A program made the translations under genes and the position numbers. From IMG/VR virus record IMGVR_UViG_2609459830_000021: a DNA stretch of 37,447 nt; one strand, written 5' to 3'. The notes beneath the pieces are model-generated. The model worked only from the letters and a program-made list of their open reading frames with translations. It searched no databases and was not told the origin of the DNA. The first letter of the stretch is position 1, and the number at the start of each line of letters is the position of its first letter. This DNA comes from a virus. Its lineage: Duplodnaviria > Heunggongvirae > Uroviricota > Caudoviricetes. Below are positions 2,951 through 31,202 of the stretch, one piece after another.

Positions 2951-3343
2951 TCAGTAACCCACCACGGTATAACGCAGCAGAACATTCAGGGTGCCGGTTG
3001 CAGCTGCTGTCTTAATGGTGACCGTAACCAGCTCTCCGTCACGCTGTGTGGTGTACGGCTCCACTGGCACATACTTGGTAAAGCTGGCAGTTACTGCACC
3101 ACTGTCACCAATGAGTTCATGTTCGCCAGATTTAACGCTGACAGTTGCTGTGCCGCCAAGTCCCTTGGTAGAAACCAGCTGTAACGCATTAATACGAACA
3201 CCGATCGGCAACGAAAGAAGATGAATAACACTGTCCGCTTCCGCAGCATTCACAGTAAACACACCTTCTGCCACCGACTCATTACCGTGCGTACCCGTAT
3301 AGACCCGTTCACTCAGTGACGGGGCAAGGATGGTCTTTGCCAT
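2951..3343 (-). CDS. hypothetical capsid-associated protein (130 aa)
   Basis: ORF immediately downstream of major capsid gene with AGGAG-type RBS; beta-rich composition suggests decoration or Ig-like protein (inference). Confidence 0.45.
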   Translation of the reverse strand: MAKTILAPSLSERVYTGTHGNESVAEGVFTVNAAEADSVIHLLSLPIGVRINALQLVSTKGLGGTATVSVKSGEHELIGDSGAVTASFTKYVPVEPYTTQRDGELVTVTIKTAAATGTLNVLLRYTVVGY

Positions 3344-3364
3344 AATTAATGACTCCTGAAAAAG

Positions 3365-3390
3365 CCGGGCGATAACCCGGCATGAGGAAA
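3365..3390 (-). terminator. hairpin plus U-tract (attenuator) downstream of major capsid gene
   Basis: minus-strand gccgggttatcgcccggc followed by tttttcagg. Confidence 0.45.
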
Positions 3391-3397
3391 GGAAAAA

Positions 3398-4612
3398 TCA
3401 GAGCTTCACTGCGGTATCAACAGCAATCACACCGTGATCCTGCATCCTGCCGCTCTTCTCCGGGAAACGGATTTTTTTCAGACCGTTGATCCAGCTGATT
3501 GCTATCTCAGTACGGTTATCCATATCCGTTTTCTTCTCAACCATGTTGAAGTGACCGCCGCCCTTCTGACCGTACGCATTCGCCAGTGCCTGAGCACCCA
3601 GCAGCATGGCGCGGTCAATGTTGGTTGCGGCCTGCTTCTCTTCTGTGGTTGCCGTCAGGTCGTTTTTCGATACCAGAACCTTTGACCCCTGATAGAAACG
3701 GATCGGCATCCCCGCATACTTGCGGACCAGGATATTGCGCCACATCGCACATTCGCCTTTGAACAACGGATGATTAAACCCTTTTGAACGGTTCACGGCA
3801 CGCGTCATCATCTGGTTCCAGTCCTTGCCGGAAGTTGAGGTGTACCAGTCATTCCACTGACGCGGCGTAACGTACAGGACGTAATACGGATCTTCGCCAT
3901 GCAGTTCATCTCCGGACAGACGCACCGGCTGTAACGGATGGGCCATCTCGTCAATAAACAGCGAGAGATTATCGACCAGCCCAAGGGTGAACAGGTCTGA
4001 CTGATCAATACCGTCAAAACTCGTCGCATCACCACCAAAAAAATGACGGTCATACGTCGGCGGCAGTACGTCGTTGATCATGATTTTTTTGAATTCAGGG
4101 TGATCTGCCGTTGGCAGAATGGTGTCGTCAGCAACAAAATCACCGCGGGCACCGGCAAGATGCACTATCGCACACTGGTCCTGCAGGTCGTTAAAGTACG
4201 TACCCAGCAGCGTTCTGGCAGAGGATGCCAGGTTGAACTTCGTACGCTGCTGGCTCATACGTCCGCCCGCATCCACCAGGTGACGGCCCTGATTAATTTT
4301 CAGGGAAAAATCAGCATGGCTGAGGTCTTCACCACGGCCTTCAACGCGCTCATCCCCCATCGTCGGACGTTTAGAGAGTTTGTGCATGATGCTGAACGTC
4401 ACTTCATCACCGGCCTGTTTGTTGAGGTCAGTGATCCGTACAACCGGCGCACCCGCGCTGGTCTGCTTCGTGCTTTGCTTGTCCGGCGAAACCGCTTTTG
4501 GCGCTTCCTGCTGTTCAGTGAGGATATTGACCATCGAGCGGTTGCGGTTGGCAGCGGTAAAAAGCGCCACCTGATACAGCTTATTCGCCTGGGCTGATGT
4601 TACAGTCGTCAT
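3398..4612 (-). CDS. major capsid protein (404 aa)
   Basis: size and position after scaffold gene; protein composition typical of HK97-fold coat proteins; ATG at 4612. Confidence 0.7.
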   Translation of the reverse strand: MTTVTSAQANKLYQVALFTAANRNRSMVNILTEQQEAPKAVSPDKQSTKQTSAGAPVVRITDLNKQAGDEVTFSIMHKLSKRPTMGDERVEGRGEDLSHADFSLKINQGRHLVDAGGRMSQQRTKFNLASSARTLLGTYFNDLQDQCAIVHLAGARGDFVADDTILPTADHPEFKKIMINDVLPPTYDRHFFGGDATSFDGIDQSDLFTLGLVDNLSLFIDEMAHPLQPVRLSGDELHGEDPYYVLYVTPRQWNDWYTSTSGKDWNQMMTRAVNRSKGFNHPLFKGECAMWRNILVRKYAGMPIRFYQGSKVLVSKNDLTATTEEKQAATNIDRAMLLGAQALANAYGQKGGGHFNMVEKKTDMDNRTEIAISWINGLKKIRFPEKSGRMQDHGVIAVDTAVKL

Positions 4613-16060: not shown

Positions 16061-16324
16061 GTCCATAAGAAAGCCCCTCCGGAGAGGGGCTGGAGAGTGG
16101 CGCTATGTGCCATTGCATGGTGCCGGGTGCCTCCCGGTGAGTTCAGCCCGGTGCCACTAAACCCGCGTCATTCTCGTTTTGATAATCAGAGATTATACCG
16201 TCACCAGTCGCCCCTCCGCTCAGGGGGATTCACCATGCAGTTTTTTCTAACAAATTCTCATCCGGGCAGACAACATTCAACTGACTTAATTGTGAGGTAT
16301 GTAACATTCCCGTTGAACGGATAC

Positions 16325-18671: not shown

Positions 18672-19355
18672 TCAGTAGCGATGCAGTGAAGGCGGCAACT
18701 CTTTGTTCTTAAGCCTTTCCCATGCCAGAAGGTTCGTCGGCCCGTCAGGCTCATAAATATCTATATCCCGCGTGTGATTAATTAAAACGCCCCTCGCCCT
18801 CCCGATGATATACGAGAACTCATAGCCGTAGTCGTGGCATATGCCGGAATAGCCAGACTGAATCAGTTTTAATGCGGGATACAACTCACGGAACAATGCC
18901 TGTGAGCGGTTGGCATAATCCCACAGCCATACAAGGCTGTCTGTTTCTTTTGCGGAAAGCCCGTTGGGCTTCTTCTCTTGTTTGCCAGTATTTTTCTCGC
19001 ACTGGCTGAAATAGCAGTCTTCCAGTTTTTCGAACACATCCCACGCCTGATCGGTTTCTAGCATTTTGGCGTGACGGGCTGCGCCTCGTTCTGTCCAGAG
19101 GATGAGGGAGCGAACGTTACGGGCAATTTTCACAGAGTAGTTAAAAGCTACTCTGTGCTTGAACTCACGTAAAGTTTCACCTTCAAGTTTGAAGAAGTGT
19201 TTTTCCTCAATGAAACGACCTTTGTTTTCGTGGTGATTCTGGCGAATACGAATAGCTTCTGTGCCGTAAAGGTGCGCCAAAAGTTCGGTAGTGATAACGG
19301 GGATCTGCTTGTAAGTAATCGTGGAGAGTGTTTCAACAGAGATTTGAGTTGTCAT
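18672..19355 (-). CDS. ORF6N/KilA-N-type domain protein, paralogue A (putative antirepressor, 227 aa)
   Basis: shares [16 protein letters not shown] and [39 protein letters not shown] blocks with paralogue B (20274..20939); C-terminal halves unrelated. Confidence 0.6.
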
Positions 19356-19513
19356 AATGACGCCCTCGAGTGGTTTCTTAATAACTCACCACCGACGACG
19401 CCAATCGTCTGGTGGTGAACTGTGCAGGGTTGGCGTAACCGGGAAACCGACCGGCGCGGATCTCTCCGCCCCCACACAGCCCACCATAATTCAGATGTGC
19501 GCGTGCATACGAC

Positions 19514-19593
19514 AATAAAAAACACGCTCGCGGCGTGTATCTGTCGCGGTCTCTATCCAGGACGCCAATCCCGACGCCAGATTTTGCTGGCGC
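19514..19593 (-). ncRNA. candidate small RNA A (promoter, 5' hairpin, intrinsic terminator) upstream of ORF6N gene A
   Basis: minus strand: TTGACG (19624-19629), 18-nt spacer, TATATT (19600-19605); 5' hairpin cgccag-caaaat-ctggcg (19575-19592); terminator acacgc-cgcga-gcgtgt + UUUUUU (19516-19538); whole unit conserved in copy B. Confidence 0.45.
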
Positions 19594-19808
19594 GTGAGGA
19601 ATATAGCCCCGAATAAATCATCACGTCAATCACCTTGTTTTCCTCGCACGATGTCTTAGCCACCGGATATCCCACAGGTGAGCCGTGTAATTGAAGGCTT
19701 TAACGTCAGATTCTTTTGGGATTGGCCTGGGTTTATTTCTGGAACGTTTCGTTGGAAGGTAATTGCAGTTTTCACAGACTATATCGGTAATGCTTCGTCG
19801 CTGTCGTC

Positions 19809-20273: not shown

Positions 20274-20939
20274 TCAGAATTCAAATTGTCTTGCCCGCAG
20301 GCTTTTCAGCATTGGCATGGCCCGCTGGATAACGGAACTTGACATGTCGAGACGTGTTACCTCCCTCAGTAGCGCGTCTCTGTTCTTCGTCACCATGTAG
20401 ATGGTCTCAAACGCAATGTCATACAGCTTGTTCGTGTATGAGGAGTTCAGCTCTTTCATAATGGGATACAGGTGTTTGCTGATGTCCTGGGCTTTTTCCA
20501 TCCAGAGCTGCATGTAGCAAAGGAGGATGATTTCTTCGGCTGTGAATTGTGGCTGAATCTGCGGCTGCTGTTCGGTTGGTGCTGTTTTTCCCTGGCTGAA
20601 ATAGCAGTCTTCCAGTTTTTCGAATACCTCCCACGCCCGATCGGTTTCGAGCATTTTTGCGTGACGGGCTGCGCCGCGTTCTGTCCAGAGGATGAGGGAG
20701 CGGGCATTTTTACCAACTAACCCGATTGTTTCGGGTCTGTTCTTAAACTCGCGTAATTCGTTTTTTTCAATTTTAAAGTAATGCTTTCCGGGCATGAATC
20801 GCGTCGTGTTGTTCAGAAAGTTATCAGAAATGTTTTTGATTTTTGTTCCGTAAAGGTGAGCCAACAGTTCAGTAGTAATTACGGGGATCTGGTTATAGGT
20901 AACAGGGGAAAGGTTTTCGACAGAAATTTGAACAGCCAT
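20274..20939 (-). CDS. ORF6N/KilA-N-type domain protein, paralogue B (putative antirepressor, 221 aa)
   Basis: see paralogue A; ATG at 20939. Confidence 0.6.
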   Translation of the reverse strand: MAVQISVENLSPVTYNQIPVITTELLAHLYGTKIKNISDNFLNNTTRFMPGKHYFKIEKNELREFKNRPETIGLVGKNARSLILWTERGAARHAKMLETDRAWEVFEKLEDCYFSQGKTAPTEQQPQIQPQFTAEEIILLCYMQLWMEKAQDISKHLYPIMKELNSSYTNKLYDIAFETIYMVTKNRDALLREVTRLDMSSSVIQRAMPMLKSLRARQFEF

Positions 20940-21101
20940 AATGACCTCGCGTTTCGATAATTTTTACCTCGCCACCGTCAGGTGCTAATCATCGTGGTGG
21001 CGAACTGTGCGGGGTTAGCACTACCGGTCGAAACATCCGGCGAGCCTTTCGGCTCCCCCACACAGCCCGCCATAAATCGCGAATGTGACTGTGCTTAGCG
21101 C

Positions 21102-21178
21102 ATAAAAAAACCGCCAGCGCGGTTATGCACCGTTTCGATATCCGGGGTGCTAATCCCGACGCCAGGTTTTGCTGGCGC
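21102..21178 (-). ncRNA. candidate small RNA B (paralogue of sRNA A) upstream of ORF6N gene B
   Basis: minus strand: TTGACA (21209-21214), 18-nt spacer, TATATT (21185-21190); 5' hairpin cgccag-caaaac-ctggcg; terminator aaccgc-gctg-gcggtt + UUUUUUU (21104-21122). Confidence 0.45.
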
Positions 21179-21281
21179 GTGAGGAATATAGCCCCGAACA
21201 CGCGACGTTGTCAAACTGATGGCATTGCAGATCCCTACGCAATGTAACACTATGTGTTATACATTAATAACGGAACAAAAA

Positions 21282-21652
21282 ATGCGCATTTTTAAAAACG
21301 CCTGGTTTGAGCGATTTGCACGCAAAACAAAATATCCGACCAATCACTGCGCGAAATTGTTAAACAGGCTGATAACGGGCTTATCTCAGCAAACCTGGGT
21401 AACGGCGTTATCAAGCAACGTCTGCCACGAGTCGGTGGCGGCAAATCTGGCGGTTATCGCACAATCATTTTCTATCGCGTCGGCACAAGGGCCTTTTTCG
21501 TATATGCATACGCAAAAAATGAACGTGAAAATATAACCGCTACTGCGGAAAGTGCATTTCGGAAGGCGGCTCCTCACGTACTCAATCTAACAGATGAACA
21601 ACTGGCACAACTGATTCTACAGGGTCAGTTTACGGAGGTACCCAATGAGTAA
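21282..21652 (+). pseudogene. RelE/ParE-superfamily (HigB-like) toxin gene interrupted by a frameshift in an A-run
   Basis: frame a: MRIFKNAWFERFARK… (21282 onward); frame b from ~21325: KISDQSLREIVKQADNGLISANLGNGVIKQRLPRVGGGKSGGYRTIIFYRVGTRAFFVYAYAKNERENI…EVPNE ending TAA 21650-21652; the switch lies in aaaacaaaa (21324-21332). Confidence 0.6.
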
Positions 21653-21962
21653 AAATTACCGCAGTGATGCGCTTGCATCCGTACATGAAATGATGGAATC
21701 GCTTCATGATATCGGCGCAGTAACGAAACAGACTATGCGAGAATTCGATGAAACTTGTCTCCAGCCAGCGCCGGTAATGTCTCCGGAAAGGATCCGTGCA
21801 CTGCGCGAACGAGAGCATCTGTCTCAACCTGTTTTTGCCAGATACCTCAACGTCAGTAAAAACCTGATATCAGACTGGGAACGTGGTGTAAAACGGCCGG
21901 GAGGTGCCGCTCTTCGCCTTCTTTCAGTCGTAGAGAAAAACGGGATCCAGGTAATATCATGA
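21645..21962 (+). CDS. HTH (XRE-type) antitoxin, HigA-like (105 aa)
   Basis: ATG overlaps toxin stop (ATGAGTAA); C-terminal HTH …LSQPVFARYLNVSKNLISDWERGVKRP…; toxin-first order typical of higBA-type modules. Confidence 0.6.
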   Translation: MSKNYRSDALASVHEMMESLHDIGAVTKQTMREFDETCLQPAPVMSPERIRALREREHLSQPVFARYLNVSKNLISDWERGVKRPGGAALRLLSVVEKNGIQVIS

Positions 21963-21981
21963 TACTCCAATACAACAAAAC

Positions 21982-22000
21982 CCGCCGAAGCGGGTTTTCA
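21982..22000. terminator. bidirectional intrinsic terminator between convergent higA-like and doc genes
   Basis: cccgccgaagcggg flanked by aaaa and tttt; identical hairpin recurs at 22822-22840. Confidence 0.6.
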
Positions 22001-22012
22001 TTAGAAGCACCT

Positions 22013-22498
22013 TTAGTTTTGCTGTTCTATTTTAAGCTTGATAGTTTCATACAAAACAATAGTTGCGCCTGTTTTACATAATTCCCGGCTGTCATACGCA
22101 CGAGACCAATAACACAACCAGTTCTCGAGATCTTCTCGAGTATAGGTTTTGCAGGCCAGTCCCTCTGCCATTTCCACGATTTCATCGCCTGGTGCTGTTA
22201 ACTCATAGCCATTCAACAACAAGAAGACATAACCAGCCATCATAGCTGTTCGTTTGTTTGCATTAGCAAATGGATGATTCTGAATCAGACTTTCAATCAA
22301 TACTGATGCCAGTACAAACATGTCATTAGTCTGTTCATACCATCGAACCATGCTGGGACGAGACTGAGAAGAACTTAAATTATCAACACTCAGCACACTA
22401 ACAGGTTCATCTGGTGTTTGAAGCTCAATTAAAAGGCGATTAATTTCGGTAAGATCATCAAACGAAAGGTAGTGCACTCCTTCAACAATCTCAGCCAT
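22013..22498 (-). CDS. doc: Fic/Doc-family toxin (Doc-like, 161 aa from ATG 22498)
   Basis: Fic motif HPFANANKRTAMMAGYVFL (HxFx(D/N)xNKR); ORF track start 22507 is TTG, ATG 22498 preferred. Confidence 0.7.
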   Translation of the reverse strand: MAEIVEGVHYLSFDDLTEINRLLIELQTPDEPVSVLSVDNLSSSQSRPSMVRWYEQTNDMFVLASVLIESLIQNHPFANANKRTAMMAGYVFLLLNGYELTAPGDEIVEMAEGLACKTYTREDLENWLCYWSRAYDSRELCKTGATIVLYETIKLKIEQQN

Positions 22499-22516
22499 AG
22501 AGCACAATACCCATCA

Positions 22517-22696
22517 TTACACTTTTGAAAGTTCTTCCATTGCCTTCTCGTAACGAGAAAAACCGAAATCGAAAGCATTTTTCACCTGCTCACGATGAGT
22601 GCAATTTTCATCGATAGCCGGGCGCGGAGCTGCCACAACGCTTTTATCGCGAGGGGGAATAGTCAATCGCGGGTGTTTTTTTAGTGCGTAGCTCAT
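22517..22696 (-). CDS. putative antitoxin for Doc (59 aa from ATG 22696)
   Basis: small ORF immediately upstream of doc on same strand (phd-doc-type arrangement); ORF track start 22741 is TTG; family not recognised from sequence. Confidence 0.4.
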   Translation of the reverse strand: MSYALKKHPRLTIPPRDKSVVAAPRPAIDENCTHREQVKNAFDFGFSRYEKAMEELSKV

Positions 22697-22821
22697 TGGG
22701 TGTACCCTTACTTCTCCGTCCTGTTCTTTAACAAAAATCAAGTCAATACAAAATTAGTCAGGCTAATGTTGTTAGCATAGCCTAATACCAATCGTATTCA
22801 CAACCACAGTAAGTGAAAAAA

Positions 22822-22905: not shown

Positions 22906-23061
22906 TTACTCCTCAGGTTCGTAAGCTGTGAAGACAGCAACCTCCGTCTGACCGGTTCGGATTCGTACCTCGCAGAGGTCTTTCCTCGTTACCAGTGCCG
23001 TCACTACGACGGTAATACAGATGACGATCAGGGCGACTAACATCGCCTTTTGCTGCTTCAT
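22906..23061 (-). CDS. hok: Hok/Gef-family type I toxin (51 aa)
   Basis: MKQQKAMLVALIVICITVVVTALVTRKDLCEVRIRTGQTEVAVFTAYEPEE is near-identical to HokD/RelF as recalled; overlapping upstream in-frame ORF to 23118 corresponds to mok. Confidence 0.85.
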   Translation of the reverse strand: MKQQKAMLVALIVICITVVVTALVTRKDLCEVRIRTGQTEVAVFTAYEPEE

Positions 23062-23104
23062 AGCCTGCTTCTCCTTGCCTTTCGGCGCGTAAGAGGCTAA
23101 CCTA

Positions 23105-23170
23105 CATATGTCTAGCATGAAATTGGCCTCAGATTAATGTTAGGCGTCTTGCAGGACGCGTAATGTTAAC
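23105..23170 (+). ncRNA. sok: candidate Sok-type antisense RNA overlapping mok translation initiation region
   Basis: expected by hok/sok architecture; plus-strand TTGCCT-17-TAACCT promoter-like elements near 23085-23112 and hairpin gcgtc-ttgcag-gacgc at 23145-23160; boundaries approximate. Confidence 0.3.
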
Positions 23171-23306
23171 TGGGGCTTTTCTCTGTCTGCCTTACGGTGG
23201 CATGCCCGAGGCAGACAGCCTCAAGCACCCGCAGCAATTCTACTTAACTCTCGCTTTACCGCAAACCGTTTTTACCCGATATGGGAATTCCCATATCGTA
23301 ATGAAT

Positions 23307-30488: not shown

Positions 30489-31202
30489 ATGACCACGCCT
30501 TCAGTTTTGCCGCAAAAGTTATGGCGTCCGCTTGCAGAGATTAAAAACTTCGTTGAAAAAATGCCTGATGGAGTTCGCCTTACGGAAGTTACTAAAAAAG
30601 TTAAGACATTTGCCGAACTGTCAGGAAAGGAGAGAAACCAGCTCATAGATTTTATCGATAAACGGGAAAGCATCATTGTATTTAAGGTCAGAAAAGAAGG
30701 TTCTGGTAACGGAGTAACCTTTTTACGCTACAAAAAATATGGATATCCCAAGCGGGAAGGAAACGTCACAATCATTAAGGACCTTCAATCAAAATTATGT
30801 ACCAGATGCGGGCAGACAAAATCAGTCAATGATTTTTATTCAGATGCCAGCAAGCGTGACGGGAGAGCCATTTATTGCAAGAAGTGCGAATCTGCAATGA
30901 AACGCTCACGCAGAGAATGCAACAAATTAATTCTGCAACAACAGGAACCTGAAATGAATAACCTCAAAGCAGTTTCACCTTCACCAGAAATACTCAGAAA
31001 ACAGGCTGAAGAATTGCTGAAAGCCGCCGAAATTGCGGAGAAAAAACGCCAGGAAGATGATGCATTCAACAAAAAACTTGCGCCCTTAAAACTTGAAATC
31101 CTTCAGGCCGCCGGAAAAATGCAGCTTAAACTGGACGAATTCATCGACTGTATGGATGAAATGAATAAAGCAGTTCAGAAGCTTAAAGAGCTGACCGCCT
31201 GA
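30489..31202 (+). CDS. hypothetical early-left protein with CxxC…CxxC zinc-ribbon-like motif and coiled-coil C-terminus (237 aa)
   Basis: CTRCGQTK…YCKKCES; GAGGTGA RBS; ORF track TTG start at 30486 moved to ATG 30489. Confidence 0.5.
   Translation: MTTPSVLPQKLWRPLAEIKNFVEKMPDGVRLTEVTKKVKTFAELSGKERNQLIDFIDKRESIIVFKVRKEGSGNGVTFLRYKKYGYPKREGNVTIIKDLQSKLCTRCGQTKSVNDFYSDASKRDGRAIYCKKCESAMKRSRRECNKLILQQQEPEMNNLKAVSPSPEILRKQAEELLKAAEIAEKKRQEDDAFNKKLAPLKLEILQAAGKMQLKLDEFIDCMDEMNKAVQKLKELTA

Follow-up and report, generated by a model that had tools for sequence, protein, structure and literature searches.

A toxin gene split between two reading frames

The viral sequence IMGVR_UViG_2609459830_000021 (Caudoviricetes), a stretch of 37,447 nucleotides (nt) hereafter called the window, carries a toxin-antitoxin operon at positions 21282-21962 in which the toxin gene is broken and the antitoxin gene is whole. 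The window is identical, in reverse orientation, to positions 2162406-2199852 of the Escherichia coli ML35 chromosome (NZ_CP025747.1). From the toxin ATG at 21282, an open reading frame (ORF) of 84 amino acids extends to 21536 on the plus strand, comprising 15 authentic residues (toxin codons 1-15, 21282-21326, plus strand, frame 0; MRIFKNAWFERFARK) followed by 69 out-of-frame residues (TKYPTNHC...) up to a stop codon at 21534-21536. Toxin codons 16-123 are found instead in the -1 frame (21326-21652, plus strand), which reads NKISDQSLREIVKQ...QFTEVPNE (...NKISDQSLREIVKQADNGL...TEVPNE*), stops at 21650-21652 and encodes residues R47, R60, Y77 and K79. This -1-frame segment contains no ATG, GTG or TTG, and for that reason the ORF list has no entry with its end at 21652.

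Each frame holds part of a single domain, and the resemblance is not due to chance, as matches to the Pfam family PF06296 confirm. The intact homologue with 99.3% DNA identity covered the entire profile (positions 1-120 of 120; E 1.7e-46, 157.8 bits, cutoff 27), whereas the -1 frame of the window matched positions 15-120 (E 5.5e-36, 123.8 bits) and the frame-0 stub matched the profile start (reported stretch 1-34, E 5.7e-4). The whole domain does not occupy a single uninterrupted ORF here; it is divided between frame 0 and the -1 frame.

Comparison with intact alleles traced the break to a single nucleotide. Three intact genes of 372 nt (123 amino acids) served as references, from HCP4S3_I4, SCU-104 and strain 48, with 99.3%, 93% and 84% identity, respectively, to a 741-nt operon query. 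DNA alignment against all three revealed one missing A as the sole indel, located in a run of four adenines (A4) at 21324-21327 on the plus strand that is a run of five (A5) in intact alleles, and called as delA at gene position 43 in pairwise alignments. CGC-AAAAA-C in the intact genes thus reads CGC-AAAA-C in the window (CGCAAAAACAAAATA versus CGCAAAACAAAATA; in longer context, CGCAAAAAC becomes CGCAAAAC). An earlier examination of this DNA, the sequence-only reading, had recognized the toxin N-terminus and remainder in different frames and had assigned the switch to aaaacaaaa at 21324-21332, as the equivalent of a 1-nt loss. Translation and the PF06296 matches bear out the first of these claims; the intact genes agree with the loss of one A within that span and confine it to the first run, with the second run (21329-21332) unaltered.

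PF06296 (PF_RelE) is the family of Vibrio cholerae HigB2, and the toxin matched no other Pfam family at E <= 0.01, including the HigB families PF05015 and PF09907. Published assignments place HigB-2 in PF06296 and Rts1 HigB in PF05015 (PMC11980606). The description of the toxin as HigB-like in the sequence-only reading therefore holds in the HigB2 sense (PF06296) and fails for classical HigB (Rts1 HigB or VcHigB1; PF05015, PF09907). HigB-2 chains were also the best solved sequence relatives (E ~0.003), and phmmer alignments to PDB entries 5JA9 and 5JA8 paired R47, R60, Y77 and K79 with VcHigB2 R51, R64, Y82 and K84, residues whose mutation cripples VcHigB2 (PMC5416850). All RelE-type active-site residues are encoded downstream of the break. 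In 30 homologues with 58-86% identity, R47 and R60 never change and Y75 and K79 hardly do; most homologues from outside E. coli have F in place of Y77. K5-K15 is the longest conserved block in this alignment: 10 of its 11 positions show no variation, and the eleventh, A13, shows almost none.

An AlphaFold2 model built from the 30 homologues for P0001, the cluster representative that shares 98% identity with the intact query, reached a mean predicted local distance difference test score (pLDDT) of 87 and a predicted template modelling score (pTM) of 0.81. In this model residues 2-6 form a strand (beta1) and residues 7-15 a helix (alpha1), both with pLDDT ~94. A Foldseek search of the PDB returned V. 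cholerae HigB2 at all of ranks 1-8 (probability 0.99-1.00), with template modelling (TM) scores of 0.46-0.58, which are moderate. PADLOC yielded no match for the toxin and only generic helix-turn-helix matches for the antitoxin, and NCBIfam contained no model matching the toxin.

The antitoxin gene (21645-21962, plus strand) encodes an intact 105-amino-acid, HigA2/YiaG-like protein with Pfam matches to HTH_3 and HTH_31. Its C-terminal part is an XRE-type helix-turn-helix domain, and its N-terminal part is presumed to be the toxin-neutralising segment. Among solved structures, V. cholerae HigA-2 is the best match (E 7.9e-8); weak NCBIfam matches were obtained to MqsA and to PRK10072 (E 1.9e-5 for the latter), a model that we take to be YiaG. 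The exact antitoxin sequence occurs on at least 1000 public contigs, and its accession, WP_000042397.1, is the same in genomes with an intact and with a broken toxin; together with the whole ORF at 21645-21962, this accords with the earlier claim that the antitoxin is intact.

The operon has the HigBA-type organization, with the toxin gene upstream of, and overlapping, an XRE helix-turn-helix antitoxin gene: the toxin stop codon at 21650-21652 overlaps the antitoxin ATG at 21645 by 8 nt. In the window, frame-0 translation ends 109 nt before that ATG, and translational coupling is therefore lost. A strong Shine-Dalgarno sequence, GGAGG (21634-21638, plus strand), lies 6 nt before the ATG and would allow independent initiation of the antitoxin. 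Upstream of the toxin, the imperfect palindrome TGTAACAC-TAT-GTGTTATA (21243-21261, within the element mapped at 21243-21263, plus strand) overlaps TGnTATACA, an extended -10-like element, and forms the longest upstream block common to the lineages with 99% and 84% identity, which are otherwise divergent in this region. Palindrome and TGnTATACA are candidates for the operator and extended -10 promoter of the operon; because a strict sigma-70 scan detected no plus-strand promoter either for the operon or within the toxin gene, it is the conserved palindrome that points to this assignment. Downstream, a terminator scan called, on the minus strand, a GC-rich symmetric hairpin with A/T runs on both sides (21977-21998; AAAACCCGCCGAAGCGGGTTTT), likely a bidirectional terminator at the point where the operon and the doc gene converge.

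These features place the operon next to two sets of described systems. With V. cholerae HigB2/HigA2 (VcHigBA2; PDB 5JA8, 5JA9, 5JAA and 8A0X) it shares a PF06296 toxin encoded first, the counterparts of the four catalytic residues, the top eight structural matches of the model and an antitoxin, here of ~105 amino acids, whose C-terminal helix-turn-helix matches HigA-2. It differs in sequence (~21-26% identity, at the TM scores given above), in its genomic setting (the nin region of a lambdoid prophage, as opposed to the Vibrio superintegron), and in its frameshift-split toxin ORF, which leaves the module non-functional as a pair; moreover, the E. coli subfamily is known here from sequence and a predicted model, unlike the solved Vibrio proteins. 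The bicistronic relE-yiaG modules of E. coli likewise pair a PF06296 toxin with a downstream YiaG-like helix-turn-helix antitoxin (mBio 2025, PMC11980606), but their toxins have extended disordered N-termini, in contrast to the compact 123 residues and conserved N-terminus seen here.

Inheritance of the deletion and decay of the toxin gene

Of the complete E. coli genomes matched by a 65-nt probe across the site, 28 carry A4 and 6 carry A5, and direct alignment identified PS2Canimalfeces12 and LZHX12 as two further A4 carriers, for at least 30 complete genomes. The allele is also present in a deposited phage genome, PhiR12_3 (from ECOR13), and its bacterial carriers include every listed O104:H4-labelled genome, four Korean isolates (FORC strains and NCCP15648) and pig and environmental isolates. 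The exact 84-amino-acid frame-0 product was found on 188 public contigs from NCBI, JGI, ENA and Logan assemblies, and its F12L variant, named for O104:H4 strains, on 210 further contigs. A4 is linked to private single-nucleotide polymorphisms (SNPs) such as G63A, which accompanies it in ML35, FORC_069, FDAARGOS_772, AST198, cM8a and PhiR12_3, and it occurs with two different antitoxin 3′ halves; its presence without G63A in PS2Canimalfeces12 and LZHX12 fits recurrence or recombination alike. Because of this occurrence in many genomes, the SNP linkage and the two antitoxin 3′ halves, we regard A4 as an old, inherited haplotype that has spread horizontally.

The antitoxin gene is itself a mosaic. 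Between the 99% and 93% lineages, the toxin gene and the first third of the antitoxin gene hardly differ, and all of the divergence falls within the antitoxin from the start of its helix-turn-helix half (~21754-21962, or operon nt ~473-682; loci L006, L008 and L015), a pattern that indicates a recombination breakpoint inside the antitoxin gene.

Broken toxins predominate in these lineages: about 32 of about 38 complete genomes at >=90% identity carry one. The A deletion (delA43) accounts for 30 of these, and three that were checked, FDAARGOS_772, AST198 and cM8a, additionally carry delC287. Some 16 further genomes with the identity and score of FDAARGOS_772, mostly O104:H4-labelled, probably share delC287, and the frame-0 product of this group is the F12L variant. 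A different combination, delA269 and delC287 without delA43, was confirmed in 23CRST047 and, from an identical score, probably extends to 23CRST049. In the 84% sister lineage (169 genomes), an independent insertion that converts G4 to G5 at gene position 95 (insG95) was found in 20 of 60 evenly sampled records, or about a third, and further truncated toxins are numerous in the 90% protein cluster. The antitoxin was intact in every copy inspected.

Carriers also show signs of continuing decay: in the sampled broken alleles the toxin has five non-synonymous changes (F12L, A13T, I26M, I44L and E89A), four of them at invariant or nearly invariant family positions, and two synonymous changes, versus no non-synonymous and three synonymous changes in the antitoxin. 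This contrast, drawn from very few changes, is no more than suggestive (Fisher p = 0.17, not significant).

In E. coli P15-385, an example of insG95 (locus L009, ~418-452), the Prokaryotic Genome Annotation Pipeline (PGAP) annotates two 'toxin' coding sequences. The E. coli homologue P0009, encoded on a 4.56-Mb contig, carries a compensated double frameshift that changes AFFIYAYAKNE to A-FSSMRTQRM, with loss of the catalytic Tyr and Lys from an ORF that remains full-length.

With at least four different frameshifts and an intact antitoxin in all copies examined, the family agrees with a model of toxin-first erosion; pseudogenisation of the toxin before loss of the antitoxin is reported to be the common erosion route of toxin-antitoxin systems (PMC13617665). 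The eroded chromosomal systems of Photorhabdus described in that work (Mol Biol Evol 2026) resemble the present operon in that the toxin alone is disrupted, the antitoxin is retained and several independent lesions exist. They differ in that the operon studied here is mobile prophage cargo whose broken allele has spread over diverse E. coli, instead of decaying within one lineage.

We therefore consider it highly probable that an inherited A5-to-A4 deletion pseudogenised the toxin of a type II operon, HigB2/HigA2-like and carried by a prophage, with the antitoxin kept. Genuine toxin inactivation with a retained antitoxin was also the explanation listed first in the sequence-only reading, and the inherited A4 allele and the lack of recoding signals detailed below speak for it. 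Ribosomes that initiate at ATG 21282 would make 15 authentic residues, the family's most conserved stretch, and then translate 69 codons out of frame before terminating at 21536. As the catalytic body of the RNase lies in a -1 frame that has no start codon, essentially no toxin would be made. The break should kill the toxin, because the conserved N-terminal block (beta1 and alpha1) is cut off from the catalytic body. The antitoxin, by contrast, probably continues to be made, as its own GGAGG, the conserved palindrome and the terminator are all kept, and it may be maintained as a helix-turn-helix protein that controls its own synthesis and does no harm or brings a slight benefit, such as neutralisation of related toxins that arrive from elsewhere. 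For a pair of this kind, decay is safe only if the toxin goes first.

Recoding, annotation and assembly as alternatives

Some observations weigh against simple pseudogenisation. The substitution contrast between toxin and antitoxin falls short of significance. An allele that is old and widespread, is phage-borne and is combined with two antitoxin 3′ halves could be tolerated or even favoured, and not simply decaying. In addition, the sequence A_AAA_U (21329-21333, plus strand), 2-3 codons past the lesion, may allow a near-wild-type toxin to be rebuilt at a low level.

In that event the break would be bypassed by a -1 slip of tRNA-Lys at A_AAA_U, the only site read from the sequence at which P-site re-pairing in the -1 frame is perfect (AAA onto AAA, one base back), and the allele would be attenuated, not dead. 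Such rare slippage would yield low but functional amounts of full-length toxin, at perhaps no more than a hundredth of normal output. The computed slip product retains all catalytic residues and differs from the wild type by the single change N16T (junction peptide FARKTKISDQSLR; ...ARKTKISDQ...), at a variable position occupied by N, H, Q or R in homologues, and the age and spread of A4 are compatible with a product that retains some function. Against this, the junction contains no X_XXY_YYZ heptamer (its frame-0 codons are CGC AAA ACA AAA UAU), and tandem slippage would need the A-site tRNA-Tyr to re-pair from UAU onto AUA, which is impossible. The 88 nt downstream (21333-21420) fold no better than shuffled sequence (-17.9 kcal/mol versus -16.8 +/- 3.1; z = -0.35), the only stem downstream of the junction starts ~35 nt away, and inspection of the sequence by eye revealed no internal Shine-Dalgarno-like stimulator. 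A run of four adenines is too short for transcriptional slippage. Homologues also argue against a conserved two-frame layout: 29 of the 30 are single ORFs, with lengths of 123-124 amino acids in 24 and 122-129 in the rest, and all span the whole query (98-100% coverage), the one exception to the single-ORF rule being an internally frameshifted E. coli protein; single ORFs likewise occur in the intact genes at 99.3%, 93% and 84% identity. Finally, FDAARGOS_772 (O104:H4-type), AST198 and cM8a have gained an uncompensated deletion downstream, which indicates that selection does not maintain the downstream frame in these carriers. We accordingly judge a leaky A4 allele to be very improbable, and nothing points to enhancement of whatever slippage may occur.

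The same evidence speaks against dedicated recoding. Programmed -1 frameshifting, as in E. coli dnaX and the IS1 and IS3 transposases, likewise involves two overlapping frames, one protein and a switch adjoining an A-run, but here there is no heptamer, no downstream hairpin or pseudoknot, and no trace of the two-frame layout in any intact relative; we rejected it on these grounds, and transcriptional slippage on the basis that the runs are only 4 nt long. Slippage, which the sequence-only reading had listed as its least likely option, is thus left without support, all the more so given the second frameshift in part of the carriers.

Less probable still is that the RefSeq gene model is correct. 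PGAP annotates a 112-amino-acid coding sequence from an ATT start (WP_226867305.1; locus coordinates 3215-3553, equivalent to window 21314-21652, plus strand) in ML35, FORC_069 and PS2Canimalfeces12, labelled 'RelE/ParE family toxin' and not flagged as a pseudogene; if real, it would be a functional, N-terminally shortened toxin, and its product does match PF06296 positions 15-120. However, E. coli uses ATT as a start codon only exceptionally, and the 10 nt upstream of it (GGTTTGAGCG) contain no usable Shine-Dalgarno sequence. The model also lacks residues 1-11, and with them strand beta1 and most of the K5-K15 block, and this start position is used by none of the 30 natural homologues in the alignment. 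For other alleles of the same toxin gene PGAP picks pieces of 68, 98 or 104 amino acids, variation that reflects a pipeline fitting fragments and not a real gene model. We therefore rejected the ATT-start model, for want of a ribosome-binding site and of most of K5-K15, and view it as an annotation workaround.

Least credible is an error in the ML35 assembly that would leave the real gene intact, an option that the sequence-only reading had kept open: homopolymer indels are common in long-read assemblies, but a run of only 4-5 bases is not a typical hotspot, and the same allele recurs in the 30 or more independently assembled complete genomes from many laboratories and in PhiR12_3, its exact product on the 188 contigs across four collections, and its linkage to private SNPs such as G63A in the pattern of an inherited haplotype, which together effectively exclude it.

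Prophage setting and consequences for annotation

The window represents a lambdoid prophage of the 933W/Stx-phage-like type, with genes for an N4-gp56-type capsid protein, a NanS-p-like esterase, Q, nin functions, O/P-like proteins and Bet/Exo/Gam; no stx or tRNA genes were found in it. The toxin-antitoxin operon belongs to the nin region and is encoded on the opposite strand from the phage early genes, flanked on one side by an ORF6N/Ant antirepressor gene and on the other by the doc toxin gene.

On the antirepressor side, two P1/P7-type immunity cassettes with a C4 antisense RNA, isrK and a c4-a1b1 target occupy the minus strand (20993-21191 and 19408-19606), each upstream of an antirepressor gene: the ORF6N/Ant gene at 20274-20939 and, at ~18672-19355 (converted coordinates), a gene that PGAP names 'phage antirepressor Ant'. 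A near-consensus minus-strand promoter (TTGACA-18-TATATT, 21214-21185) abuts the control region of the toxin-antitoxin operon. On the other side, and convergent with the HigBA2-type operon, lies the doc pair (22013-22741), consisting of a Doc/Fic-family toxin gene (22013-22507, minus strand; Pfam Fic, PHROG 'Doc-like toxin') and, upstream of it, a small ORF (22517-22741, minus strand; phrog_2208, no Pfam match) that probably encodes a Phd-like antitoxin. Beyond it, a hok/sok type I locus (22906-23230, minus strand) combines a hokD ORF with sok RNA (Rfam, 114 bits). With hok/sok, the doc pair and the HigBA2-type operon side by side, the nin region of this prophage holds three adjacent toxin-antitoxin loci.

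Elsewhere in the window, the small RNA STnc100 (16061-16266, minus strand; Rfam, 165 bits) lies between the genes for the Q antiterminator and the NanS-p-like esterase, a slot that is presumably the place of the stx genes in Stx phages. PGAP flags pseudogenes at 1048-1245, a shortened N-terminal piece of a tail fibre, and at 30507-30575, a shortened 'regulator' piece (converted coordinates), and in view of these two flags the prophage may be partly degraded.

If the A4 allele were leaky after all, a prophage toxin that is costly at full output would have become a low-dose one, and this change could account for the spread of the allele, including into O104:H4-labelled genomes and a phage genome. 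As a pseudogene, the toxin forms part of a module eroded toxin-first, an ordinary and already understood phenomenon that opens no new mechanistic question. In practical terms, what matters most is that annotation conceals the pseudogene: toxin-antitoxin censuses of E. coli, including those of O104:H4-labelled genomes, would count a dead toxin as a live one.

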